Part shown: positions 190 through 34,147 of the stretch, piece after piece
Numbering within the stretch: the first letter of the stretch is position 1
How the letters are laid out: the number at the start of each line of letters is the position of its first letter
Assembly (NCBI GenBank): GCA_964597575.1
Contig: CAZQXB010000001.1
Span: forward strand, 402,111 to 466,110
From: an uncultured Gammaproteobacteria bacterium
GTDB taxonomy: Bacteria > Patescibacteriota > Patescibacteriia > Magasanikbacterales > UBA922
Direction of reading: 5' to 3'
Length of the DNA stretch: 64,000 nucleotides
Translations under genes and position numbers: made by a program
The notes under the pieces: generated by a model
Databases searched by the model: none
What the model was told of the DNA's origin: nothing
What the model saw: the letters and a program-made list of their open reading frames with translations, nothing else

Positions 190-193
190 AATG

Positions 194-247
194 AAAAACA
201 TGGCTATATAAAGCCATGTTTTTTGTACTCGCAAACGGAATCAAACT
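194..247. repeat. inter-cassette repeat, partial copy 0 (terminator hairpin aaaaacatggct..agccatgtttttt + diverged 3' motif ctcgcaaacggaatcaaact)
   Basis: Shares the hairpin and 3' motif with copies at 1486, 4889, 6911, 10175. Confidence 0.6.
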
Positions 248-339
248 GCTTTCAATTTTATTATTAAGATTTAGTGTTAGAGATACTCATTATATGGTAG
301 TATAAGAGCCACTAGTTAATTATTTTCGTTATAGTTTTC

Positions 340-1467
340 ATGAAGATCGCTACAAACGTACATCGAGATGCCTTTGGTGGTATTACTATTTCCAATCTCG
401 CTCTTTTTGATTGGTTGAAAGATAAAGAAGATACCGTAGTAGGCATTGAAATTATTACAAGTCGACATTTGCTTGGTCCCGTTATATTTCGTCATTATTT
501 ACCATCTTTTTTTCAACATCATATTATCAATGGTATTGACATTATTCCACGTTTTTCTTGGGAAAGACGTGGAAATCTTCGAAAAAAATGGAATATTCTT
601 GTTGAAAATACAAAAGATATTTTACGTCAAGAGTCACCCGACGTCGTTTTGCTTAATGGTACTTATAGTACTCCTTGGATTTTGGCACAGGCAGCAAAAG
701 AGTTAGGAATACCATTAGTTCTACGATATGCAGGAGTTCTTCAAAAAGAAGTGAGTCATAAAAATTTTTTTGTAAAAAAAAGATTGTTATTTTATGAAAA
801 ATGGATTGCGTCTTCTGCTACAAGTATTATTTTTCCTTCTCGTATCTGTCAAAAAATTGTAGAAAAAGAAATATTAGGTCAGAGTGTGAATTGCAGCGTT
901 GTTATTTCTAATCCAGTTGTTCCTGCAAAAAAATTGGTACGGAGAAAAATTGGGCGTTTCACTATCTCTGCCATAGGGCGATGGACGCCAATTAAAAATT
1001 TTCAAGCATTTGTAGCTTTGCATCGTGAGCTTCTCTCAGAAGGGTGGCAACATCGAGCCGTTATGGTAACATCGTATTGGGATGAAAACTTTGATATCCC
1101 TGAAACGATTGAGAAGAAAAAGCAAATGAGTCAAGAAGATCTTTTCAAATTTTATCGATCAGTTGATCTTCTCATCGTCCCTTCACATTTTGAGACGTTT
1201 TGCAATGTCGCAGCAGAAGCTCTTATTTGCGGAACTTCTGTGTTAGTATCAAAAAATGTGGGATTTTCTGAGATACTCATAAAGGCCGGATTGAAAAGAA
1301 TGGTAATTGACTCATTTGATAATCCTAAAAAGGTTGCTGAAGCGGTGAAACGAATTGCTAAAACAAAACTCACGCAAAAAGAAGTAAAAAAAATTGCCCT
1401 TTTACTCAACCCACAAGACATACACCAGGGTATACTTGATGTTCTTGGTGGTGTTATAAAGGTATAA
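340..1467 (+). CDS. glycosyltransferase, GT4-like (GT-B fold)
   Basis: C-terminal motif VPSHFETFCNVAAEALICGTSVL typical of GT4 retaining glycosyltransferases; 375 aa; about 33% GC. Confidence 0.6.
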   Translation: MKIATNVHRDAFGGITISNLALFDWLKDKEDTVVGIEIITSRHLLGPVIFRHYLPSFFQHHIINGIDIIPRFSWERRGNLRKKWNILVENTKDILRQESPDVVLLNGTYSTPWILAQAAKELGIPLVLRYAGVLQKEVSHKNFFVKKRLLFYEKWIASSATSIIFPSRICQKIVEKEILGQSVNCSVVISNPVVPAKKLVRRKIGRFTISAIGRWTPIKNFQAFVALHRELLSEGWQHRAVMVTSYWDENFDIPETIEKKKQMSQEDLFKFYRSVDLLIVPSHFETFCNVAAEALICGTSVLVSKNVGFSEILIKAGLKRMVIDSFDNPKKVAEAVKRIAKTKLTQKEVKKIALLLNPQDIHQGILDVLGGVIKV

Positions 1468-1485
1468 GTCTAGGATGTAAAATTT

Positions 1486-1607
1486 GGAATATAAATATAT
1501 TCCTTCTCCTCACGGAGAATAGTTCCCACCTCCTTCACCAAGTTCTGCACCGAAAAACATGGCTAACTAAAGCCATGTTTTTTGTATACCCGCGTGTGGA
1601 ATCGAAC
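1486..1607. repeat. inter-cassette repeat copy A (right 120 bp of element)
   Basis: ggaatataaa...cacgg..agttcc.acctccttcaccaag.tctgcaccgaaaaacatggct..agccatgttttttgtatacccgcgtgtggaatcgaac. Confidence 0.7.
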
Positions 1608-1697
1608 TAAATGGTGTTTTTGCTATAAAGAATCTACGCACTTGCAATATAAAATATAAATGGCAAGCTATATACAATCATTTACTATCTATAAACT

Positions 1698-2135
1698 ATG
1701 CCTAAGAAAAAATTGCAACATCAAAAAGACATTAATGGTTGTGGTATAGCCTGTATATCCAATCTATTGGGTAAGCCATACGACTGGATTAAGAAGGATT
1801 TTGAAGATAGATTTTATACCATTGAAAGAGGGGTAAAGATTTTTGATGTTGTTTCATATCTAGAAACACACAAGCTTAAATATAAGAGTAAATTTTTTAA
1901 CCAAAATAAGAAGTCTAAAGTAGACGTCGGTGAAGCAGATGCATTTTCTAAAATACCAGGGTCTATAACGTTAATTGCTAAAAATAAAACGTACCCTATT
2001 GGGCATTATTTACTCCGAACCAAAGATGGTTGGGTGGACCCATGGTATAACTTTCCAAGTATAGATAATGTACGGGCTGGGATGAGAAAAGAGCTGCCTG
2101 GTAACCCTTGGTATGTTATGTATCCAATCGCTTAA
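1698..2135 (+). CDS. papain-like cysteine peptidase, C39-like domain protein
   Basis: Q-x5-NGCGIACISNLLG catalytic Cys motif and downstream GHYLL His motif resemble the peptidase C39 family. Confidence 0.45.
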   Translation: MPKKKLQHQKDINGCGIACISNLLGKPYDWIKKDFEDRFYTIERGVKIFDVVSYLETHKLKYKSKFFNQNKKSKVDVGEADAFSKIPGSITLIAKNKTYPIGHYLLRTKDGWVDPWYNFPSIDNVRAGMRKELPGNPWYVMYPIA

Positions 2136-2206
2136 ATAAGCAGGTTCCAAGTTCATTCTGTACGGCCTACTAGCGTGTAATTCGTACTGGATTCTGAAAG
2201 AGCTGT

Positions 2207-2803
2207 ATGGTAGTCTCTATTAAAGATTATATGGCACAAAATACCTCATTTGAATATTTAGTAAGCGAGATTAGGGCTACTAGTTCTCAAACTTTTGTCA
2301 TTGCCATTTCAGGCTTTGGGGGTTCTGGAAAAAGCACAATAGCGAAGAAATTGGTAGAAGCACTTAAAGATGCTACTATTATCCCTCTTGATGATTTTAT
2401 CATGAATCGTCTCCAAGGCCGTTCTTTGGAGTGGGCATCTTTTGATTGGCAACGATTAATAAAAGAGGTGTTACTTCCAATAAGAAAAAGAGAAAAAAGC
2501 ATCGAATATGGTGTGTATTCTTGGATAGAAGATAAGGTGGCTCAGAAAAGAACAGTAGAGATCAAAAAGTACGTTATTATTGAAGGGGTCGGACTTATCC
2601 GAGATTCTTTGCAAGAATACTTTGATTGCACCGTATGGATCGATACCCCTTTTGATATAGCGATTGCTAGGGGTAAAAAACGTGATAAGGAAGAGTATAG
2701 TATAGATCATGACAAGCTTTGGGATGAAGTGTGGGGTCCAAATGATAAGGATTATTTTGATACATTTAAACCTAAAGAGAAAGCCGACTTCGTTCTTTCC
2801 TAA
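2207..2803 (+). CDS. P-loop nucleoside kinase (uridine kinase/phosphoribulokinase family-like)
   Basis: Walker A AISGFGGSGKSTIAKKL; VIIEGVGLIRD...VWIDTPFDIAIARGKKRD resembles the Udk/PRK family. Confidence 0.5.
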   Translation: MVVSIKDYMAQNTSFEYLVSEIRATSSQTFVIAISGFGGSGKSTIAKKLVEALKDATIIPLDDFIMNRLQGRSLEWASFDWQRLIKEVLLPIRKREKSIEYGVYSWIEDKVAQKRTVEIKKYVIIEGVGLIRDSLQEYFDCTVWIDTPFDIAIARGKKRDKEEYSIDHDKLWDEVWGPNDKDYFDTFKPKEKADFVLS

Positions 2804-2812
2804 AGAAGAGTT

Positions 2813-3733
2813 ATGAAGACTAAAAATACATACCAACTTCCTATTGTCTTAGCACACGTTACAAAAGTCGCAAAAGAAGGTATTGCTCATGTTGGTGACC
2901 TCATTCATTCGATTGACTACGATGCACCAATCGGTACCCCAATTACCGCTGCCCTTGATGGTGTTGTTATTGCTATAAAGCAAGATTCAGATCAAGGTGG
3001 AGGCGATCCAAAATATGAGAATGATGGAAATTATATCGAAATTCTCCATGAGAATGATGAAGTTTCAGAATACGAACATATTCTACAGCATTCTGCTAAA
3101 GTAAAGATAGGCGATGGGGTTAAAAAGGGGCAGGTTATTGCATCAGTCGGAAATACAGGGTGGAGCGAGTGTCCGCATCTTCATTTTATGGTGTACCCAA
3201 AAGGTGAGGAATATAAAACACTTGAAATTCAGTTTGAGAGTGAAGAATTCGTTGACCTGGTTGATAAAGAAGGGCGGATGCAAAAAACTCAAGTACTACG
3301 TTCAGAAGTGTCGAAGTATCCTAATTTACACATGCAAATTGTTATTGCAGTAATTTTAGATAACCAACAAAGAATTTTAGTCCATAAGAGAGCATCTACA
3401 AAAAAGGTAGATCCTGGAGCTGTCGATCATGTCTGTGGTGGGGTTCAGTCAGGAGAAACACCGATTGAGGCCGCTATACGAGAAACTACCGAAGAAACTG
3501 GGCTCGTTCCATGTAATCTAAAAGTCGTCATGCAAGGGCTAAATTCCTATGGCCGATATCGGTATTTACTTTTAGGTGAAGCCCAAGGAGAACCATCAGT
3601 TGATCCGAAAGAGGCAGAATGGGTACGCTTTATCTCGGTGGAAGATTTAAGAAATCTTTTTGAGAGTAAAAAAGAAGCTTTTGTTCATGAATTTTTTAAG
3701 GATACGGATTTAGCTATTCGTGCTACTGTCTAA
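2813..3733 (+). CDS. M23 (LytM-type) metallopeptidase domain fused to a NUDIX hydrolase domain
   Basis: M23 HxxxD and HLHF (HxH) motifs in the N-terminal half; NUDIX box GGVQSGETPIEAAIRETTEETGL in the C-terminal half; no signal peptide. Confidence 0.6.
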   Translation: MKTKNTYQLPIVLAHVTKVAKEGIAHVGDLIHSIDYDAPIGTPITAALDGVVIAIKQDSDQGGGDPKYENDGNYIEILHENDEVSEYEHILQHSAKVKIGDGVKKGQVIASVGNTGWSECPHLHFMVYPKGEEYKTLEIQFESEEFVDLVDKEGRMQKTQVLRSEVSKYPNLHMQIVIAVILDNQQRILVHKRASTKKVDPGAVDHVCGGVQSGETPIEAAIRETTEETGLVPCNLKVVMQGLNSYGRYRYLLLGEAQGEPSVDPKEAEWVRFISVEDLRNLFESKKEAFVHEFFKDTDLAIRATV

Positions 3734-4835
3734 GTATATGGAAATAAAGGCATTTTTTGGAATACTTTCATCTCTCTTCATCTTTTTAGGAGGTATTCCT
3801 TATTTGAGGGATATTCACTTAAGAAAGGCGCACCCGCATGTTCTTTCATGGATTGGCTGGGCTTTCATAACAGCTCTAGGAGCCTTTGCCATGCTGGCTG
3901 GGGGTAGTCAGTGGGCGGTTGCTATATTGCTCAGCAATACCCTTCTCTGTCTTCTTATTGTCCTATACTCAGTTTTTAAAAGAGTTGGCGTCTGGTCAAC
4001 CATGGTATGGGACTTTGTATTTTTTGGACTTGGGTTACTTGGGCTTGTGCTTTGGCAGACACTTCATCTCCCCATTCTCGCCCTCATCTGTGCGATTATT
4101 GCTGATTTTTCTTTCGGTCTCCCCACCATTGTTAAAACGTATAAAGATCCAAACTCAGAAACTCCTTTTGTCTGGGCTACTGCCACAATATCCGGAATAT
4201 TTAGTCTATTTGCTATAAGAAGTTTTGCTTTTTCTGAAGTTGCGTATCCATTGTATCTTTTTCTCTATGATGGAATTGTACTTCTTTTAGTGCTTAAGAT
4301 TTTTGTTAAAAAAAATAAAAATATTCGAAAATTGCTGGATACAATTGTTAATGAAAAAAATGAAAAGAACTGGTATGTTCCAGAATTATTTCAGCAGAAT
4401 ACGTTACCAATTTTACCAAGGGAGTTAAAAGTTATCGCTCTGCCTCCCTTATATGATGAAAACTACAATTGTTTTATCTATGCTCTGGGATTGTCGAATA
4501 ATCTTGAATTTATTAAGAAGGTGTCTGGTTTTATCTATAGCCCATTTGTTAAGAAGTTAATCGAAGAAGGAGTCCTTCGGGAATCTAAAGAAATAAAGAA
4601 AGGAACAATTATTTTATATACCAATGAAAAGAAATTTCCTGGGGAAATAGCGCATGCTGGGGTGATGAAAGATAAAGACACTGTTATTTCAAAATGGTCT
4701 TGGGGACCCACCTTAGAACATTCTCTGCTATCAGTACCTCTTTCGTATGGTGAAACATTGAAGTTTTATCATTTAGAATCTACAAATAGTGTTTTATTAG
4801 CATACGAGAAATTTAGTGCACTTAATAGGGCTTGA
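3720..4835 (+). CDS. polytopic membrane protein with C-terminal putative Cys/His hydrolase-like domain
   Basis: Five or six hydrophobic helices at the N-terminus; C-terminal NCFIYALG ... HAGVM Cys/His spacing like NlpC/P60 or CHAP-type folds. Confidence 0.35.
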   Translation: MLLSKYMEIKAFFGILSSLFIFLGGIPYLRDIHLRKAHPHVLSWIGWAFITALGAFAMLAGGSQWAVAILLSNTLLCLLIVLYSVFKRVGVWSTMVWDFVFFGLGLLGLVLWQTLHLPILALICAIIADFSFGLPTIVKTYKDPNSETPFVWATATISGIFSLFAIRSFAFSEVAYPLYLFLYDGIVLLLVLKIFVKKNKNIRKLLDTIVNEKNEKNWYVPELFQQNTLPILPRELKVIALPPLYDENYNCFIYALGLSNNLEFIKKVSGFIYSPFVKKLIEEGVLRESKEIKKGTIILYTNEKKFPGEIAHAGVMKDKDTVISKWSWGPTLEHSLLSVPLSYGETLKFYHLESTNSVLLAYEKFSALNRA

Positions 4836-4888
4836 CTGGTAAGTTGTTATCACGAATTAACCTCACACCTCAACTCACTATAGTTTGA

Positions 4889-5051
4889 GATATAGTGAGT
4901 ACTACTGTGGGGTAAGTGGAGAAATACTCGGAATATAAACATACCCTTTCTCTTCACGAATAATAGTTCCGACCTCCTTCACCAAGCTCTGCACCGAGAA
5001 ACATGGCTATAATAAGCCATGTTTTTTGTATACCCGCGTGTGGAATCGAAC
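4889..5051. repeat. inter-cassette repeat copy B (full, about 165 bp; preceded by 10-bp perfect palindrome aactcactata/tatagtgagtt at 4872-4900)
   Basis: Direct alignment to copies C and D. Confidence 0.75.
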
Positions 5052-5066
5052 TTTATGTATACTGGA

Positions 5067-5095
5067 TTGACAAAATACTCTTTTTGTGGTATTAT
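5067..5095 (+). promoter_or_regulatory. sigma70 promoter TTGACA-17-TATTAT driving the high-GC gene at 5250
   Basis: Consensus hexamers with 17-nt spacer; AGAGGAG RBS 9 nt before the ATG. Confidence 0.55.
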
Positions 5096-5249
5096 CTTTA
5101 GTCAAATTGTGTTTCAAAAATTACTAAATTTAGGTCATTTTACTGATTTAAATCTAGAAGTTTTTGACTGCTATAGCTAAACTTCTATCTTAGGTATTTG
5201 CTTAAGATATTGGTTCTCTACAATTCAATCGAAAGAGGAGTGAAGAAAA

Positions 5250-6785
5250 ATGGATAACAAGTTCTGTCCTCACGGCAAGCACGTGAAGTTCTGCGGCGAA
5301 TGCGGCAATCTGTGGTTCGAAGTGCAGGCGCCCCATGTCTGGATGAACAGCATGGACCCTGGACGAGATGCGGGGATCGGTCTGATGAAAGAGCGTCACG
5401 GTATCGTCACGGTGACTGTCGAGCAGCACCATCCGAGCCTCGGTCTTCTCGACAAGTCTGTGGTGATGGTGCATGTTACGGGACATCTCTTCGTTTGGGG
5501 TATCGAGAAGATTCTCGAAAACGCCCCGAACGTCAAAGAGATTCAGGTTCAGCCACACATGGTGAAGAAGCTGACCGACGCTCACCGTACTCTCTGTGCA
5601 AAAGCTGGAGTCAAGTTGACGAGCGGATACTCAGACCCTGACCGTGCTTGGGAAAAAGGTGAGGTGAGACGGTCGCCACGTTTCCTAAAGATACGGAAGT
5701 TCTTTCAGCTTCTCGAAGGCCAGCAAAAAAAGCTCTTCGACGAGCTCATCGAGTATGGTATCGAGTCGGCCCTCATGGCTCGGGACTACTACGAGGAAGC
5801 AAGTGACGGAAAGGAGGGGGAGGAGCCTGTCACACTGCATACTCTGTGTAAAAAGTACGGGTACAACGACAGTGTGATGGCCCACATCTCAGCTCGGATT
5901 TACTCCGTGCTAGTGTACCTCGATCCTAATTACAAAGTGGGGCAGGATTCGCGACGGCTTGCTCGTGTCATGAAGGATGATGTTGAAAGGCTTCGTGAGA
6001 AGTTCGCGACTGCAAAAGCAAGGCAGGATCAGGCAGCCGCGCTTGGTCTCCGAATTCTTCCTGTCGACATGCCACTGCAGCTCTACGATGAGTTGGAGAT
6101 GGTTGTTACTGCCCAGAGGAAGGGCTGGCTGAAGCAACTCCAGGCTGCAAGGCCGCGAGCGCATCGTGCTCTGACGCTGAGGTACGACATACGGGATACG
6201 CAAAATCCGCGTTTTCGTACCCTCGAAGAGGTGGCCGAGACGATGGGTGGCGAGGATTTCAAGACGCGCGAGAGAGCTCGTCAGTTGGTGGAGCAGGCTA
6301 TCGAGTTTTTCGTCTTGCAAGGACAGGCAAGCGGTGAAACTCTGAGAGCTGGACGCGTGCAGGAGAAAGCGACGAAGATCGTCCAGAAGAAGGCCGCTCG
6401 GGCAAAGGCTGGTCCTGTAACTCAGTTGACCAAGGTTCCTGGTCCCGTCGAAAAGCAGGTGGTGAACCTGGTTTGCCAGTCTTATGGCTTGCCTGAGACT
6501 GAGATCTTCACTCACGGCAAAGATCAGCCGTGGGCAGAAGCTCGACAGGTCATCATGGCTCTGTGGAGACGGTACCTCAACTGGTCCTACCCGCTGATCG
6601 CAAGAGAGATGGGTAAGGAAGATCACACGACGATCATACATGGTTGTCGAGAGATCGCCAGTCGTCGGAAGACCGACCGAGTGCTTGAACAGCGGATGAC
6701 GCTGATCGAGATGATGCTCGGCAAGCCGCCGCCCGACTTGAGCGCCATCGAAATTTCCCCAGATCCTTCCACTGCCTCGCAATGA
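5250..6785 (+). CDS. high-GC Zn-ribbon / sigma70-region-4-like HTH / DnaA domain IV-like HTH fusion protein (putative DNA-binding regulator or replication-initiator-like)
   Basis: N-terminal CPHGKHVKFCGECGN; RALTLRY..RTLEEVAE..TRERARQLVEQAI resembles sigma70 region 4; EARQVIMALWRRYLNWSYPLIAREMGKEDHTTIIHGCREIASRRKTD resembles DnaA C-terminal domain IV; about 58-60% GC against flanks of about 33%. Confidence 0.6.
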   Translation: MDNKFCPHGKHVKFCGECGNLWFEVQAPHVWMNSMDPGRDAGIGLMKERHGIVTVTVEQHHPSLGLLDKSVVMVHVTGHLFVWGIEKILENAPNVKEIQVQPHMVKKLTDAHRTLCAKAGVKLTSGYSDPDRAWEKGEVRRSPRFLKIRKFFQLLEGQQKKLFDELIEYGIESALMARDYYEEASDGKEGEEPVTLHTLCKKYGYNDSVMAHISARIYSVLVYLDPNYKVGQDSRRLARVMKDDVERLREKFATAKARQDQAAALGLRILPVDMPLQLYDELEMVVTAQRKGWLKQLQAARPRAHRALTLRYDIRDTQNPRFRTLEEVAETMGGEDFKTRERARQLVEQAIEFFVLQGQASGETLRAGRVQEKATKIVQKKAARAKAGPVTQLTKVPGPVEKQVVNLVCQSYGLPETEIFTHGKDQPWAEARQVIMALWRRYLNWSYPLIAREMGKEDHTTIIHGCREIASRRKTDRVLEQRMTLIEMMLGKPPPDLSAIEISPDPSTASQ

Positions 6786-6910
6786 GGCGCCCTTGAGCTC
6801 ACGCTCGGGCTTCGCGACTTCGGGTCAGTCGCAACAAATCAAACCGTCCCGATAGGTGATACTATCGGGAACATTCAAAACATCATCTCACTCGAGGTGA
6901 TTTTTTGTTT

Positions 6911-7074
6911 ATATATAGTGAGTATTACTCTCGGGTAACTGGTAAAAGGCTCGGAATATAAACATATCCTCTCTCTTCACGTATAATAGTTCCGACCCCC
7001 TTTACCAAGCTCTGCAACGAGAAACATGGCTATACAAAGCCATGTTCTTTGTATACCCCTGTGTGGAATCGAAC
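6911..7074. repeat. inter-cassette repeat copy C (full)
   Basis: Direct alignment to copies B and D. Confidence 0.75.
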
Positions 7075-7214
7075 CAAGGTGTAGTTCTAAAGAAAACTTT
7101 ATGATTTTTTTATCTAGGGTATGATATGTTCCTTTAGTTATTCTGAGTACCCTATTGTATACTCGACATACCGTGTATTCTTCAGTAGGGTACGCCCAGA
7201 ATAATCTATTTTCT

Positions 7215-7880
7215 ATGAACCGTAAAAACAACACTCTCATTGCATTACTAGTAGTTATCGTTATTCTCCTTATCGGAGGGTATGTTGTACTTGTCCAAAA
7301 AGAAAACGAACCAATGGTAGGTCCAGATAATGGAAATGGAACATCGGTTGAAATTCCATCTACCACACCATCTTCTAGTGAAGAGATAGTAAATAATGGA
7401 AGTTGGGAAAAATATACTTCTCCAGATTTGGGTATTTCATTTGAATATCCAGCAAGTCTTAGTCTCTTTCAAGAGCGTAAGGATACTGACCGCGGAGAGG
7501 GAAATTTTGTCATTCTGAAACGTGAGAATGAGCAGAGAAGATTTCTAGGAACAGTACTGGTAAGTTCTCCTGATTATATACGAGAAATTGATGGTTTTCC
7601 TTCCTATATGTCAGGAGATTATTTTTTGGATCAAAGCGAAAGTGAGATAGAAAAAATTATTAGACAGAGAATTCATGCGGTTACAGCCATTACCAAAATG
7701 CCAAATAATTTTTATGCAATTACGCAAGAATATGTGTTTGGTGATAATCCTGTAAAAGGGACATTTTATTTCACTCAAAGAAAAAATAGTGAGTTACTTA
7801 ATGTAAGTATATATCAAGTTGATGGGGTTATTAGTAAGCAAGAAGATTTAGAGAATTTTTTAGAAAGTTTCAAATTTTAA
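7215..7880 (+). CDS. hypothetical membrane-anchored/secreted protein
   Basis: ORF with N-terminal hydrophobic anchor MNRKNNTLIALLVVIVILLIGGYVVL; track ORF begins at 7155. Confidence 0.4.
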   Translation: MNRKNNTLIALLVVIVILLIGGYVVLVQKENEPMVGPDNGNGTSVEIPSTTPSSSEEIVNNGSWEKYTSPDLGISFEYPASLSLFQERKDTDRGEGNFVILKRENEQRRFLGTVLVSSPDYIREIDGFPSYMSGDYFLDQSESEIEKIIRQRIHAVTAITKMPNNFYAITQEYVFGDNPVKGTFYFTQRKNSELLNVSIYQVDGVISKQEDLENFLESFKF

Positions 7881-8013
7881 AGTTAGGAGAATTTGGTTGA
7901 GGTGATTGCGTACATGCTTGGCAGTATCCTCAACCAAATTTTGGCTGAGGTTCTTTCTAGAACTCATTGGATAACCCGATGATACTGCAAAGAAAAAATG
8001 AAGGGGTGCTGAC

Positions 8014-8110
8014 ATGCAGGCGATCGTTCGTTTTCTGCTATGTATGCTGGTGTTCTGTCCGTGGTTCGCTGCGGCAGATTACCAGGGACCTGTGTTATTT
8101 TCACCCCCCA
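8014..8110 (+). CDS. possible small high-GC hydrophobic peptide (MQAIVRFLLCMLVFCPWFAAADYQGP...), 3' extent uncertain
   Basis: GAAGGGG RBS 7 nt upstream of the ATG; high-GC hydrophobic N-terminus; reading frame runs on into AT-rich promoter-like sequence without a stop. Confidence 0.2.
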
Positions 8111-8171
8111 CTGTAAAAAATATTTACCTTAACACAAAAAAATGTTATGATAAAATCATAAGGAGGTGCAA

Positions 8172-8477
8172 ATGTCGGAATTCGAAAAAGATGCTGCGGT
8201 GCAGCTTGTGGCTGTGCTGCTTGTCGGCGGACTGCTTGTCCTGATCGCCCTGCACTTTGTTGTCTATTTTCTCTTCAGAGGCGTGCAGCCATTGGCTGCT
8301 GCTAGGATGCCTGCCACAGATCAATCTTTTTTAGAGCCAGATGCCACGCCTTGCGATGAAGAAGATCCTGAAGAGATGCGACAGTGCACAGATGCATGGG
8401 TGAGGGCAAGAGAGGCGGAGGGCGCAACTATCTTGCGGACACGAGACGGGCATGGGATTGTGGCTCTGGGCCCTTAA
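8172..8477 (+). CDS. small high-GC membrane protein with acidic C-terminus (hypothetical)
   Basis: AAGGAGG RBS and extended -10 (TGTTATGAT) upstream; one TM helix; about 60% GC. Confidence 0.4.
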   Translation: MSEFEKDAAVQLVAVLLVGGLLVLIALHFVVYFLFRGVQPLAAARMPATDQSFLEPDATPCDEEDPEEMRQCTDAWVRAREAEGATILRTRDGHGIVALGP

Positions 8478-8529
8478 CGATAGTGAAATCGATCCAGGGC
8501 TCCAGCCTCCAACGATCTGCTTCTGCTCA

Positions 8530-8585
8530 CAGAGTCACTTGCTATTGCTGTGACTCTTTTTTATGTTCCGTGCGTGGAATCGAAC
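8530..8585. repeat. inter-cassette repeat partial copy E (different hairpin agagtcac..gtgactc + T-run, conserved 3' motif ccgtgcgtggaatcgaac)
   Basis: 3' motif matches other copies. Confidence 0.55.
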
Positions 8586-8597
8586 TAAGTTAGATCA

Positions 8598-9236
8598 TTG
8601 AAAAGAATGAGGCTTTATGCTAGTGCATGTGTATTCTTAGATCTATCTTCTATTTTGTTTATTATGAATAATAAAGGTTTGTACGTCATCATTGCGTTTC
8701 TTTTGGTCATCCTTTGCGTTGTTGGATATAAAGCATATTCTGTTTCTGATCGTACATTGTCTCCAAATGAGCAGTTCTTAAATCAAGAAAATAACCCATC
8801 AAATGAAAATAAAGGCAATACGCTTACTGATTCTCTCAAAAACAGTAAGGGTTATAGCGCTGGCGATACACGTGATATCTCTTCGTTATCTAGTTCGGAT
8901 ACGAGTAAAGAACTCGATATTGCATTGATCCAGGATGTTAAAACTATTCAAAATCAAAATATCTCTTATAAGTTTTATCGAGTTGGATTTGGCGATGCGC
9001 CTCCACACTATAGTAATGGACAAATTATCGTTGAAGTAACGACGAATCAAAAAGGTCCAAGTCGATGGTATTATTTTAATACTGATATTATTGATGCTGA
9101 TTCTATTGAATCACTCCTGTTTAGTGGTGAGGATGTGCGTATGTCTTGTAAAACAGGTAAACCAAATGGTACATGTTTATATACGATAAAATTTCAACCA
9201 GACTTGGAGATGTTAAAAATTTATAAAGTAAATTAG
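8598..9236 (+). CDS. hypothetical membrane-anchored secreted protein
   Basis: ORF; TM anchor LYVIIAFLLVILCVVGY; real start may be an internal Met near 8663. Confidence 0.4.
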   Translation: MKRMRLYASACVFLDLSSILFIMNNKGLYVIIAFLLVILCVVGYKAYSVSDRTLSPNEQFLNQENNPSNENKGNTLTDSLKNSKGYSAGDTRDISSLSSSDTSKELDIALIQDVKTIQNQNISYKFYRVGFGDAPPHYSNGQIIVEVTTNQKGPSRWYYFNTDIIDADSIESLLFSGEDVRMSCKTGKPNGTCLYTIKFQPDLEMLKIYKVN

Positions 9237-9378
9237 TAGACCTCCTTGACACTAAGGTTAAATTACGTTAGGATTTCGAGCGACCAAAAGGTCATCACAT
9301 GCGTGGTGATTTTTTGTTTACTCATTCCTGTTCTTGTGTTACTTTTAATTTGTAGAATAACAAAATTTTATTTTTCGT

Positions 9379-10119
9379 ATGTCAGAAGGTCCAAAACGTT
9401 TTGAGTTAGGCCAGATGTTTCTTCGAGAAACAAATAGTATTCCACAAGCAGACAAATGGTTAGAAAACAGGGCTGAATGGATGGTTGGGGCTGCTCAAAT
9501 CAAAAAATATTTGGCACCAAAAATTGAATTTCGTGACAGATTGGCTGGAGAGGTAGAAAAAGGAGTAAAGGTGTTAGCTATTGGTGCAGGAAAAGGACAT
9601 GAGCTTGATGAAATGGACAGCATTCTTCCTGGCTCAGAAATCATAGGTCTTGACCCCGATGATTTTTATTCTCGACCAGTAAAGCAAAAACTAGAAAAAA
9701 CTGCCCATAATGCGTCATATCTTCCAGAAACTATTCGTGCAGAAAATTTAGAGGGTGTAGAAAATGCTTCACTAGATGGTGTAACATTATTTTTTGTACT
9801 CCATCATATTGATGAACAAAAACACGGCGCTGTTTTAAAAGAAATTCATCGTGTTCTTAAGCCAGATGGAAAGGTGTTTATCGCTGAAGATTTGGTAGAT
9901 AACGATGAGGAAAGAAAAATAACCGAAAGAACGGATCGTATTTTGAATACTGAGTTATCAGGCAAGAATTCACATCATTACCGAAGTATTCCTGAGTGGA
10001 AAGTTTTTTTTCATACATACGGCTTTGAAATAATAGAGGTAAGCGAACAGAAGCCTGATAAAGTTCGCCATGGATTTTTTGTATTAGAAAAAGCAAACAT
10101 TTTACAAAATAATACATAG
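9379..10119 (+). CDS. class I SAM-dependent methyltransferase
   Basis: Motif I VLAIGAGKGHEL and post-I acidic residue; LKPDGKVFIAE motif. Confidence 0.55.
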   Translation: MSEGPKRFELGQMFLRETNSIPQADKWLENRAEWMVGAAQIKKYLAPKIEFRDRLAGEVEKGVKVLAIGAGKGHELDEMDSILPGSEIIGLDPDDFYSRPVKQKLEKTAHNASYLPETIRAENLEGVENASLDGVTLFFVLHHIDEQKHGAVLKEIHRVLKPDGKVFIAEDLVDNDEERKITERTDRILNTELSGKNSHHYRSIPEWKVFFHTYGFEIIEVSEQKPDKVRHGFFVLEKANILQNNT

Positions 10120-10174
10120 TCACGGTAGATTTATAATATAATCAACTAAGACGGGGAAGGTTTTTTTGTTTGTA

Positions 10175-10337
10175 GATATATAGTGAGTGCTAGTGTGGGG
10201 TAACTGGAGAAACATATGGAATATAAATTTATCCCTTCTCCTCACGAATAAAGTTCCGACCTCTTTACCAAGCTCTGCACCGAAAAACATGGCTATAACA
10301 AGCCATGTTTTTTGTATACCCGCGTGAGGAATCGAAC
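10175..10337. repeat. inter-cassette repeat copy D (full)
   Basis: Direct alignment to copies B and C. Confidence 0.75.
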
Positions 10338-10351
10338 TAAAATTAAAATGT

Positions 10352-11908
10352 TCACTCTACCTTAAACATGAACATCATGCCTGCTTCGAGATGTTCAGAA
10401 ATATGACAGTGCGCCATCCACGTGCCTAGGTTGGATGGGTCAAGTAATATATCAACTGTTGCTCCGGCCGGAACCATAACCGTATCTTTCCATGCGAGGT
10501 TTGTTTGCGCTACACCGTTCACTGACAGAACAAGAAAGCGCTGACCGTGAAAATGAATCGGGTGTTGCATGGGGTGTGGGGAATTTGGGTCATTATAGAT
10601 TTCAATGCGTACCGGCTTATCTTTTTTGAAAACCCAGTCTATGTCCATATTGGATTTGCCGGTTGCGCTGTCTATGATCTTCCATCTTGTTTCTTTCGTG
10701 GTTGCCATTCTGTTCATCATCTGTATCATGCCCCCCTCGTTTTCCCATTCAATACCATCATTTGACATCCCCATGTTCATGTCATTATGTGCACCTCCCG
10801 TTGACTGCATGTGCTCTGCCATCATGCCTGACAAGTCTACCGACAGTGTGAGTTTTTTATCTATAGCGTTGTGCATGTACGCACGAAATGGATCAATGCT
10901 TGCTTTCACCGCAGCGTTCTCTTGAAGAGTATTGAATTCTTTTGTGTACGAAGGCTCGGCAATATCCGTGCTGACAACGATATTCCCTAACGTTACAGGA
11001 CCGTTTGGAATGTTGTTTTGCAGTGCGTACGTTCCGGCCGTTGCAAACATCACATCCACAATCGCACGCTCCGAGGGGCCAAGAATAACACTATCTTGCC
11101 ACGTCGCTTTTTCATATGATCCATTGTCGCTGCCAAGCAGTTTCAGTTTTGTTCCGGCAATGGCTATTTTGAATGGACGAACATTTGCAGCATTAACAAG
11201 AGAGAGTCGTATCACCTCGTTTGTCTTTGCATCGAGCGTAAAGTGTTCCTGCCCATTGACGAGCATAGTTTGGCCATAATGGCCCATGAGCACCTGGTCA
11301 TTCCGTTCTTTGGTGAGTGCTATGTGGCCGCTCTTGGTCGGCAGGTCAGAAAGAAACAGCACGTGCTGGCTATGTGCGGGCGGATAGTAGGCCGTGTCTT
11401 TGGGTTCAACCACAAACGCACCATAAAGTCCAAGCGCCTGTTCGTACACCTCATGTGTGTGCGGATGGTACCAGAACACCCCAGCATCTGGAAAGGTAAG
11501 TGTGTAGGTAAAAGAACCCCCGGGCGGAATTTCCTCTTGCTGGAGTTGTGATCCATCAAAGGCATTGTCCATGCGCACGCCATGTGAATGAAGAAGTGCA
11601 GGTAAATCTGTGTCATTTTTGAAATTGATCGCCACCTCTGCGCCCTGCGTCACGTGAATTTCCGGTCCCGGGATCATACCATTATAGGCGAGCATGGTTT
11701 GCTTGTGTCCGCCGATGTCTTTCGTTACGTACGCCGCGGTTAAGGTGTAAGTGTCACCGTTTTTAAGATGAATGATCTCATGCGGTTTGGTCTCTTCCGG
11801 TTGCGGTTGAGGTTCTGGTGCAGTGTTTCGGGATGCGAGTATGATAGCACCGATAATGCCGACGATAGTGATTGTGGTAATGATGAGGAGTAGATTCTTA
11901 TAACGCAT
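10352..11908 (-). CDS. multicopper oxidase (CueO/CopA-type laccase-like), secreted
   Basis: C-terminal HCHISEHLEAGMMFMFKV type-1/trinuclear Cu signature; HSHG and WYHPH motifs; probable start at MRYKNLLLIITT signal anchor (the track ORF extends to 12043). Confidence 0.8.
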   Translation of the reverse strand: MRYKNLLLIITTITIVGIIGAIILASRNTAPEPQPQPEETKPHEIIHLKNGDTYTLTAAYVTKDIGGHKQTMLAYNGMIPGPEIHVTQGAEVAINFKNDTDLPALLHSHGVRMDNAFDGSQLQQEEIPPGGSFTYTLTFPDAGVFWYHPHTHEVYEQALGLYGAFVVEPKDTAYYPPAHSQHVLFLSDLPTKSGHIALTKERNDQVLMGHYGQTMLVNGQEHFTLDAKTNEVIRLSLVNAANVRPFKIAIAGTKLKLLGSDNGSYEKATWQDSVILGPSERAIVDVMFATAGTYALQNNIPNGPVTLGNIVVSTDIAEPSYTKEFNTLQENAAVKASIDPFRAYMHNAIDKKLTLSVDLSGMMAEHMQSTGGAHNDMNMGMSNDGIEWENEGGMIQMMNRMATTKETRWKIIDSATGKSNMDIDWVFKKDKPVRIEIYNDPNSPHPMQHPIHFHGQRFLVLSVNGVAQTNLAWKDTVMVPAGATVDILLDPSNLGTWMAHCHISEHLEAGMMFMFKVE

Positions 11909-12107
11909 ATGGATAGAGATTAATACCGATAAGTTATGTGGGTTACGATATGTTTTTTCTGCGGAGAAGCAGGGTGTTACAGACAAACCATTTTTCATAA
12001 AAATGGTGCCGGTAGTGCAGGTGGTTTTTAAATTATTGTACATGAACCACTAGGCTGTGCAAGATCGGCAGTATCTGGCAGATACCCAAGGTAGACGGAG
12101 AAATAAT

Positions 12108-12127
12108 ACCCGTGTGCCGAATTGAAC
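12108..12127. repeat. degenerate copy F of repeat 3' motif (acccgtgtgccgaattgaac)
   Basis: 15/20 identity to the conserved 3' motif, same orientation. Confidence 0.4.
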
Positions 12128-12152
12128 TGAAGTTACATCTTAAACACCGTTG

Positions 12153-12203
12153 TTGCACAGAAAAATGAGGAGGTGTACTATATCCCCTATAGGGGGATAT
12201 ACT
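12153..12203 (+). promoter_or_regulatory. csoR promoter (TTGCAC-17-TACTAT) overlapped by CsoR-type operator palindrome TATATCCCC-tatag-GGGGATATA
   Basis: Pseudo-palindrome with C4/G5 tracts flanked by AT arms resembles described CsoR operators; overlaps the -10 and transcription start. Confidence 0.55.
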
Positions 12204-34071: not shown

Positions 34072-34147
34072 GTGCGCGCCGAGGGATTCGAACCCCCGAC
34101 CCTCTCGGTGTAAACGAGATGCTCTAACCAACTGAGCTAGGCGCGCC
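34072..34147 (-). tRNA. tRNA-Val (anticodon TAC)
   Basis: Reverse-complement cloverleaf GGCGCGCCTAGCTCAGTTGGTTAGAGC...anticodon loop TTTACAC...GGTTCGAATCC...GGCGCGCA. Confidence 0.8.

Follow-up and report, generated by a model that had tools for sequence, protein, structure and literature searches.

A four-gene unit with mosaic cargo in a tRNA-Trp-anchored array of small cassettes from a probable Patescibacteria genome

Four neighbouring genes on the plus strand of a 64,000-nt stretch of DNA (contig CAZQXB010000001.1, positions 402,111–466,110; hereafter the window) lie at 1698–4835 and encode, in gene order, the proteins P1 to P4. They are best explained as the cargo of one unit in an array of small cassettes that is anchored at a tRNA-Trp gene, with a mosaic composition and a role in scavenging, and this explanation as a whole is given a somewhat better than even chance. 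The cargo is not a conserved system but a mosaic of modules (C39-like peptidase, kinase, M23) that are shuffled independently of one another. Each domain on its own belongs to a known superfamily, and the locus resembles known tRNA-linked additive islands. Novelty lies in how small cassettes without recombinases are stacked at tRNA-Trp, with long conserved junction sites between them, in a genome probably of the Candidate Phyla Radiation (CPR), and in two singleton fusions, M23–NUDIX and 7TM–DUF7689 (7TM, seven-transmembrane domain). Literature searches on DUF7689, on islands of Magasanikbacteria and on tRNA islands of Patescibacteria turned up nothing relevant and no account of such arrays.

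The four-gene unit and the array around it

The six-frame list of open reading frames (ORFs) gives P1 at 1698–2135 (145 aa), P2 at 2207–2803 (198 aa), P3 at 2813–3733 (306 aa) and P4 at 3720–4835 (371 aa), all on the plus strand, with 71 nt between P1 and P2 and 9 nt between P2 and P3. The original prediction, made from the letters and an ORF list, described a tightly linked, AT-rich cassette bounded by repeat copies on both sides, and this description holds: the genes share one strand with spacers of 4–71 nt, GC content is 0.373 in 1608–4884 as compared with 0.466 in 12153–64000, GC at third codon positions (GC3) is 0.28–0.32 in the cassette genes as compared with about 0.38–0.39 in core genes, and nhmmer places repeat copies at 1442–1611 (E 6e-51) and 4886–5054 (E 2e-58). 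The predicted 14-nt overlap of the last two genes requires P4 to start at GTG 3720. The likelier start is ATG 3738, which leaves a 4-nt gap after P3, because standalone homologues of the P4 N-terminal part begin with 'MEIKA...', matching ATG 3738, and because an independent gene call in Logan, a short-read assembly, makes P4 365 aa long. Logan also holds a contig of 3465 nt carrying exactly P1–P4 and ending at the flanking repeats, and one of 1466 nt carrying the neighbouring glycosyltransferase alone; the short-read assembly of the source sample (SRR13355620) is thus interrupted at the junction repeats.

Comparisons were made with L002 (a locus in a related genome), L011 (CAYSXR010000004.1), L026 (Logan contig SRR29476927), L028 (GCA_039739085.1), and the short metagenome contigs L018, L019, L020 and L023, in which the junction repeat adjoins unrelated cargo. 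The parts of the four-gene unit are as follows.

1612–1697, plus: leader of the four-gene unit, probable promoter region, kept in L026 (L026 1–587 vs window 1579–2163, 93.5%)
1698–2135, plus: P1, predicted standalone C39-like papain-fold cysteine peptidase without signal peptide (family alignment)
2207–2803, plus: P2, P-loop kinase of the uridine-kinase/PRK/NRK family, alternative start at 2231 (Pfam, NCBIfam, PDB match)
2813–3237, plus: P3 N-terminal half, leaderless M23 metallopeptidase module (Pfam; 3' end set by homology to L002)
3238–3733, plus: P3 C-terminal half, YfcD/IDI-like NUDIX hydrolase (Pfam, NCBIfam)
3738–4330, plus: P4 N-terminal half, 7TM SWEET/PQ-loop-fold transporter-like domain (AF2, Foldseek)
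4331–4835, plus: P4 C-terminal half, DUF7689 Cys/His domain, predicted cytoplasmic (Pfam, AF2, Foldseek)

The repeat recurs beyond the four-gene cassette and abuts tRNA-Trp, and region 190–10340 is therefore regarded as an array of at least five units, with the four-gene cassette as unit 2 (about 3.3 kb, approximately 1608–4884). All copies of the junction repeat fall in the first 10.4 kb of the window and none in the remaining 54 kb. They are about 170 nt long and 73–87% identical among themselves, and the box GTGGAATCGAAC occurs five times in the first 10.4 kb, as compared with 0.31 occurrences expected in the whole window. According to the alignments, each unit consists of a right arm (a canonical terminator hairpin followed by the GTATACCC-N6-GGAATCGAAC box), the cargo, and a conserved left arm of about 100 nt. 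Units measure 1.2–3.4 kb and hold up to four genes, and the cargo lies entirely on the plus strand. The array has a GC content of 0.399, with one unit at 0.518, as compared with 0.466 in the rest of the window. In at least one unit, a strong promoter-like site (11/12 matches) stands directly after its repeat, at 5067–5095. The landmarks of the array, in order, are these.

117–189, plus: tRNA-Trp (CCA), anchor of the array (ARAGORN; Rfam tRNA 60 bits)
185–247, plus: attL-type junction, tRNA 3' end running directly into the repeat right arm, with hairpin AAAAACATGGCTA-N4-AAGCCATGTTTTT and GGAATCAAAC box (nhmmer model positions 104–168, E 1e-11; alignments)
340–1467, plus: unit 1 cargo, GT4 glycosyltransferase (Pfam Glycos_transf_1, 1.4e-13)
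1442–1611, plus: full junction repeat r1 (left arm, core, hairpin and GTATACCC-N6-GGAATCGAAC box), left boundary of the four-gene unit (nhmmer E 6.4e-51; repeat search)
4860–4913, no strand assigned: inverted repeat at the start of the left arm, ACTCACTATA / TATAGTGAGT (repeat search; motif count)
4886–5054, plus: full junction repeat r2, right boundary of the four-gene unit (nhmmer E 1.8e-58)
6909–7078, plus: junction repeat r3 (nhmmer E 2.8e-55)
8568–8588, plus: partial junction r5, a different terminator hairpin followed by the GTGGAATCGAAC box (repeat search; alignment; box search)
10174–10340, plus: junction repeat r4, last copy of the array (nhmmer E 1.4e-54)

When all junctions are aligned, homology at the array start begins at CTGCA, the 3' end of the tRNA; in L002 and L011, homology at the other end of the array reaches about 10 nt past CTGCA and no further. 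Junctions are of three types, namely tRNA plus right arm, left arm plus core plus right arm, and, in the relatives, left arm plus core.

The downstream CsoR, CopA and DsbD genes are common to L002 and the window (80.5% DNA identity, blastn), and the repeat copies of L002 lie at 661–744 (right part), 5071–5214 (nearly full) and 7808–7928 (left arm and core only). Between them are genes for a transglutaminase-like protein, a PnuC-family membrane protein, an M23–SET fusion, two GNATs, a histidyl-tRNA synthetase and two secreted proteins. The synthetase gene (L002 3820–5076) is full-length and stands just before the junction repeat, and is unusual as accessory cargo. Homology to L002 downstream of the array resumes at about 12134–12153; the interval from r4 to this point (10341–12133) is occupied by a minus-strand multicopper oxidase gene of host-like GC (0.469). 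In L011, tRNA-Trp with hairpin and box (7214–7346) is followed by one small cassette, left arm plus core (7712–7795) and host sequence, and the genes upstream of tRNA-Trp include TypA and GST. The L011 TypA clusters at ≥90% with proteins of Candidatus Magasanikbacteria, and the host of the array is probably a small-genome CPR/Patescibacteria bacterium; a point against this placement is that L011, the source of the TypA clue, shares the tRNA-Trp element alone with the window. The L011 record is labelled 'uncultured Gammaproteobacteria bacterium', a label that is probably wrong given its TypA.

Domains of the four proteins and their independent shuffling

The domains originally assigned (C39-like peptidase, P-loop kinase, M23–NUDIX fusion, membrane Cys/His protein) are upheld by Pfam and NCBIfam matches and by family-level data. 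P1 matches Pfam Peptidase_C39 below threshold (13.6 bits vs gathering 22, E 0.061). An exhaustive search collected a family of proteins of about 140 aa with 206 cluster representatives, and in an alignment of 46 members Q9, G14, C15, H103 and N118 are invariant; 27 of the 46 match Peptidase_C39 (best E 1.3e-4). To call P1 C39-like is reasonable if a remote relationship is meant. The Gln...Cys and His...Asn/Asp spacing (Q9–C15, H103–N118) is the same as in C39 domains of bacteriocin ABC exporters (ComA; PDB 5xe8). Unlike these domains, P1 is a standalone protein of 145 aa without ABC transporter, and no double-glycine peptide gene lies nearby.

P2 matches Pfam PRK (36.3 bits vs cutoff 22, E 6.4e-9) and the NCBIfam models PRK07667 'kinase' (8e-20) and udk (8e-17), both far under equivalog cutoffs (udk TIGR00235, 61.6 vs 220.3 bits; PRK05480, 64 vs 180). 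By these scores it is a member of the superfamily only, and not a udk equivalog. Its best PDB match is 1rz3, an uncharacterised, uridine-kinase-like protein, followed by PRK, uridine/cytidine kinases and NRK1.

The N-terminal half of P3 is a Peptidase_M23 domain (E 2.4e-21, 76.2 bits vs gathering 28.7) with an intact His/Asp/His-x-His set: D35, H79, H89, H122 and H124 are invariant and H26 is near-invariant. It is a minimal module of about 142 aa that begins at residue 1 and has no hydrophobic leader. The catalytic set and the score are shared with M23 enzymes of LytM/LasA type, from which P3 differs by the lack of a signal peptide or membrane anchor, by its 'MKTKNxY' start and by the fusion to NUDIX. 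Leaderless M23 homologues of about 170 aa with the same N-terminus MKTKNxY (P0057, P0084, P0046) are encoded in Woesearchaeota and Nanoarchaeota metagenome-assembled genomes. Woesearchaeota and Nanoarchaeota are DPANN archaea and are not known to have peptidoglycan of their own, so that the presence of leaderless M23 in them raises the question of the M23 substrate. The C-terminal half of P3 is a NUDIX domain (E 3.7e-18, 66.2 bits vs 21.1; NCBIfam YfcD 1.1e-11) with the canonical Nudix box GGVQSGETPIEAAIRETTEETGL (pattern GX5EX7REUXEEXGU), closest to proteins of YfcD/IDI type.

The two halves of P4 were modelled separately by AlphaFold2 (AF2). The model of the N-terminal half (AF2 confidence score pLDDT 89.6) has seven helices in a 3+1+3 fold, and Foldseek matches it to AtSWEET13, cystinosin and the KDEL receptor (KDELR) at probability 1.0 and TM-score (TM) 0.55–0.66; the top 15 PDB matches are all SWEET, cystinosin (PQ-loop) or KDELR (probability 0.92–1.0). 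In agreement with the 3+1+3 repeat, helices 1 and 5 are each followed by a P-[YT] motif. At sequence level no Pfam match (PQ-loop, MtN3_slv, NMN_transporter) and no PDB match was obtained for the 7TM half. Assignment to PnuC by sequence was rejected, since hhalign against the PnuC-like protein of L002 gave a probability of 0.4% and the fold superfamily alone is shared. Lys/Arg-rich loops follow helices 1, 3, 5 and 7, and the C-terminal domain is therefore predicted to be cytoplasmic by the positive-inside rule.

This C-terminal half matches DUF7689 (25.2 bits vs cutoff 22.6), has invariant C51, H112 and H134, and is modelled at pLDDT 96.5. Foldseek returns weak but consistent NlpC/P60/CHAP matches (TM 0.3–0.45; E 0.04 vs PDB, 1.5e-3 vs BFVD), and no NlpC/P60 match was found at sequence level. 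The best fold matches, NlpC/P60–CHAP amidases and peptidases, have an N-terminal Cys and a downstream His. The likeness in fold is distant (Foldseek E 1e-3 to 4e-2), and the domain differs from these enzymes also in being cytoplasmic by prediction and tethered to a 7TM domain, the latter in this genome only. P1 and the P4 C-terminal domain do not form one family (hhalign probability 2.5%). For the predicted 'membrane effector', the membrane domain stands, but a SWEET/PQ-loop-fold, transporter-like domain with a cytoplasmic NlpC/P60-like domain fits better than an effector.

The modules recur elsewhere in other company. Among 331 significant matches to P3, M23 and NUDIX occur together only in the query: the M23 half is found standalone (170–202 aa) or fused to SET or methyltransferase, and the NUDIX half in standalone proteins of 168–190 aa. 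The 7TM–DUF7689 fusion is likewise confined to the query among the clusters searched. The N-terminal approximately 205 aa of P4 have about 40 standalone homologues (205–215 aa, 50–74% identity) and the C-terminal approximately 170 aa have 26 (170–178 aa, 40–52% identity). The neighbourhoods of these half-protein homologues are unrelated to one another and to the window, and the quartet, whose conservation across genomes the original prediction had proposed as a check, was seen nowhere else. Clear housekeeping orthologues, the other outcome that would have spoken against it, were found for none of the four genes.

P1 and P2 are the sole recurring pair, and they recur in the variant cassette of L026 with three other genes in between. 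Its gene order is repeat end and leader, P1 orthologue, aminotransferase, Q_salvage, a different NUDIX, P2 orthologue (83% identity) and a PnuC-like gene, the last being the one that precedes M23–SET in L002. By blastn, L026 1–587 is 93.5% identical to window 1579–2163 and L026 3717–4202 is 92.4% identical to window 2293–2778, with 3.1 kb of other genes intervening in L026. L002 1898–2342 is 89.2% identical to window 2793–3237 and the match ends exactly at the M23/NUDIX junction; since the flanking core genes of L002 are 80.5% identical, exchange between lineages is argued. A loose theme, consisting of a cysteine peptidase, a kinase, a membrane protein of the SWEET/PnuC superfamily and an M23 fusion, runs through the window, L026 and L002.

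DUF7689 was observed close to a small kinase in a second case: in L028 (2059–3332) a standalone DUF7689 gene is followed by genes for a small AAA_33/Zeta-toxin-like P-loop kinase and a polysaccharide deacetylase.

Possible roles of the four genes

The four genes match no named pathway, as the original prediction had also stated. Together they may equip an auxotrophic cell with accessory means of scavenging, a role that is proposed tentatively and at less than even probability. The SWEET/PQ-loop-fold permease of P4 would import a small substrate; the tethered cytosolic NlpC/P60-like domain, the cytosolic M23 and the C39-like peptidase would cleave its peptide or amide parts; the NUDIX domain would cleave a nucleoside-diphosphate-X linkage; and the uridine-kinase-like P2 would rephosphorylate the released or imported nucleoside. 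In favour of such a role, the P2 orthologue of L026 sits between the NUDIX and Q_salvage genes and the gene for a PnuC-family transporter, a 7TM homologue (P0127) carries a fused NUDIX domain, the cytoplasm is the predicted location of all domains, and the Nudix box and the catalytic residues of M23 and C39 are intact.

PnuC and the ribosylnicotinamide kinase of NadR form a transporter–kinase salvage pair. The cassette is similar in that a kinase of the uridine-kinase/NRK family is encoded near a SWEET-superfamily membrane protein and NUDIX; in L026 the P2 orthologue is directly followed by the PnuC-family gene, and NRK1 is among the PDB matches of P2. The cassette differs from such pairs in that its membrane domain is not PnuC by sequence and in having no NadR or NMN adenylyltransferase domain.

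Several points weigh against scavenging. Functional assignments are at the level of family or fold only, and enzymes of the M23, NlpC/P60 and C39 types are usually active either beyond the cytoplasm or towards peptides that are exported. The NUDIX domain of P0127 belongs to a different NUDIX subfamily, so that a conserved 7TM–NUDIX pair, supported at superfamily level only, was rejected. The neighbourhoods of standalone 7TM genes are heterogeneous. Finally, given the mosaicism, the four genes need not act together.

This last point leads to the reading in which there is no joint function: unrelated genes and fragments would have been made neighbours by illegitimate recombination in a hypervariable locus, and the fusions would be accidents of deletion. 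It is doubtful, and nearly as likely as the scavenging role. Partners do vary, M23 occurring with SET or methyltransferase and P1 and P2 being split by aminotransferase, Q_salvage and another NUDIX; neither fusion recurs among the clusters searched, and homologue neighbourhoods are unrelated. Against this reading, all ORFs and catalytic residues are intact, the genes are packed tightly on one strand with 4–71-nt spacers, and the loose theme is repeated in three variant cassettes (window, L026, L002).

A module for attack or lysis of the cell wall is improbable. The leaderless M23, NlpC/P60-like and C39-like domains would then be released by a phage-like or holin-like route or on contact with a host, and would cut the wall of the host or of the own cell. 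This would account for the three hydrolase-type domains but would leave kinase and NUDIX unexplained. M23 matches phage endolysin and tape-measure families in PHROGs, and the best folds for DUF7689 are NlpC/P60 or CHAP hydrolases, including phage ones; yet no phage structural or lysis genes lie nearby, by prediction the NlpC/P60-like domain lies on the cytoplasmic side, and the 7TM domain has the fold of a transporter and not of a holin. Among the carriers of leaderless M23 homologues are DPANN archaea and CPR-type contigs, and some members of these lineages are episymbionts. In IMG/VR the hairpin pattern had 0 matches, and protein scans gave no close relatives when queried with P1, with the M23 half or with an alignment of DUF7689.

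Least likely of all is the originally suggested anti-phage or toxin system, with protease, kinase and NUDIX controlling or feeding a membrane effector: the island is strain-variable, horizontally acquired and placed by a tRNA, as is often the case where defence genes collect, a secondary match links the neighbouring glycosyltransferase to the 'GT4-conflict' family, and islands of tycheposon type carry both nutrient and defence cargo (bioRxiv 10.1101/2020.12.28.424599), but the quartet is not conserved, its fusions are singletons, its membrane domain has a transporter fold and not that of a pore or effector, and no sensor, nuclease, TIR, SIR2 or toxin–antitoxin-like partner is present. PADLOC on nine island proteins gave nothing specific (matches of P2 in the P-loop segment, E ~1e-3; a 60-residue NUDIX match of P3 to PDC-S07; P1 and P4 blank) and PHROGs gave generic M23, NUDIX and kinase matches only. 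The defence or toxin reading is thus without positive support from PADLOC and PHROGs, and the quartet is not to be filed as a candidate defence system.

The cargo offers candidates for salvage steps, with genes for uridine-kinase-like kinases next to those for permeases of PnuC/SWEET type, NUDIX and queuosine salvage. The two natural fusions could hint at partners of the widespread leaderless M23 module and of DUF7689.

As a separate observation, L026 730–4725 encodes an aminotransferase, Q_salvage (DUF2419/Qng1 family), NUDIX, a P2-type kinase and a PnuC-family transporter. Queuosine-5'-monophosphate is named as the substrate of Qng1 in PMC9881137, which makes the adjacent kinase and transporter of L026 candidates for phosphorylation and uptake of queuosine.

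Origin of the array

The array probably arose by serial capture, an account favoured with modest confidence. Small cassettes would be captured one after another by recombination at the short core CTGCA..GAA at the tRNA-Trp 3' end, and the recombinase would act in trans. The pattern of three junction types fits serial site-specific integration at a short core. Against it stand the absence of a recombinase domain from the ORFs of the array, from 20 further ORFs of the window and from the surroundings of tRNA-Trp in L011, and the fact that neither an empty site nor an excised circle was observed. Moreover, the left arm resembles the tRNA-Trp 3' half weakly, and in the window a full repeat (r4) is followed by the multicopper oxidase gene in place of the left-arm-only end of L002 and L011.

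The missing recombinase is what would be expected if the repeats were portable terminator/promoter spacers and cassettes from DNA taken up were gained and lost through the 170-nt repeats as homology arms, by homologous recombination that depends on RecA. Repeats of about 170 nt that are 73–87% identical would suffice for exchange, and the hairpin is a canonical bidirectional terminator after every unit. This alternative, although a live one, is rather unlikely. The array starts with tRNA plus right arm and ends with left arm plus core, as site-specific integration predicts; homology breaks at the identical core CTGCA..GAA in two other genomes; and the box GGAATCGAAC is retained where the hairpin is replaced (r5), which suggests sequence-specific recognition.

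Serial capture has a parallel in tycheposons of Prochlorococcus, which are tandem tRNA-linked islands with nutrient and defence cargo (bioRxiv 10.1101/2020.12.28.424599). Tycheposons and other additive tRNA islands share with the array the start at a tRNA gene, direct repeats from the tRNA 3' end, cargo of niche or nutrient type and a streamlined host; successive integrations, which in the array are proposed, would push older units inward in both. The array differs in having no tyrosine recombinase and no clear replication module in any unit, in unit sizes of 1.2–3.4 kb, in a junction of about 170 nt that is mostly non-tRNA, and in the same orientation and own terminator of each unit.

Integron cassettes are likewise small, recombinase-less and in the same orientation, with a conserved, partly palindromic junction and strain-variable cargo. 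No intI or attI was seen in the window, which covers 116 nt upstream of tRNA-Trp. Unlike an integron, the array lacks the attC layout R''/L''/L'/R' with R''(RYYYAAC)...R'(GTTRRRY); the terminal motifs are reversed (5'-AGTTC...GAACT-3') and long-range pairing is inconsistent. Further differences are a promoter-like site in at least one unit, up to four genes per unit and the tRNA anchor. An attC-like folded site was rejected, since folds of single-stranded DNA give the central terminator hairpin in all copies and the outer AGTTC/GAACT pairing in 2/4. A broader view, also unlikely, is that the locus is an integron-like gene-capture platform of CPR bacteria not described before, in which a recombinase acting in trans would stack cassettes with ~170-nt sites at tRNA-Trp and modules would be reshuffled at a high rate. 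On such a platform, the M23–NUDIX and 7TM–NlpC/P60 fusions would be products of shuffling.

Genomes of CPR/Patescibacteria are tiny and auxotrophic and are thought to be poor in mobile elements, and their gain of accessory genes is poorly understood. If serial capture is true, the cassette stack would be a concrete and testable route of gene gain for tiny genomes, with cargo modules 89–93% identical across samples as compared with about 80% for the flanking core genes of the syntenic relative.

The repeat itself has further features. Rfam searches at gathering threshold and at E up to 1 returned just the tRNA and a chance FsrA match. The reverse complement of the box, GTTCGATTCCACACGCGGGTA, resembles a T-loop and 3' acceptor, and the box was considered as an intact minus-strand tRNA; this was rejected, as no copy has a 5' partner, ARAGORN is blank, and the tRNA-Val at 34072 fails to match. 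In r5 (window 8440–8588) the stem GAGTCAC...GTGACTC is unlike that of the other copies, the GTGGAATCGAAC box is kept and the left arm is absent; because the hairpin is replaced and the box retained, the box, and not the hairpin sequence, is suggested as the conserved signal. ORF 8166–8477, which precedes r5, sits in a stretch of about 50% GC. The motif ACTCACTATA occurs on the minus strand in the left arms of r2, r3 and r4, with one inverted plus-strand copy before r2 (4873–4900, 6914–6923, 10179–10188). It is the core of promoters of T7-type single-subunit RNA polymerases and has 7 matches with at most one mismatch in the window, as compared with 2.0 expected; no single-subunit RNA polymerase is in view for this T7-like motif.

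The remaining units carry other cargo. Beyond unit 3, the genes encode hypothetical membrane or secreted proteins and a methyltransferase. Unit 3 itself (GC ~52–55%) carries the gene for a DnaA_C-domain protein: ORF 5250–6785 encodes 511 aa with GC3 0.63, a DnaA C-terminal DNA-binding domain (1.2e-17) and a weak match to sigma-70 region 4, without an AAA+ domain, and its exact sequence is absent from the protein collection searched. From its domain, this protein could be a regulator or a replication protein of a mobile element.

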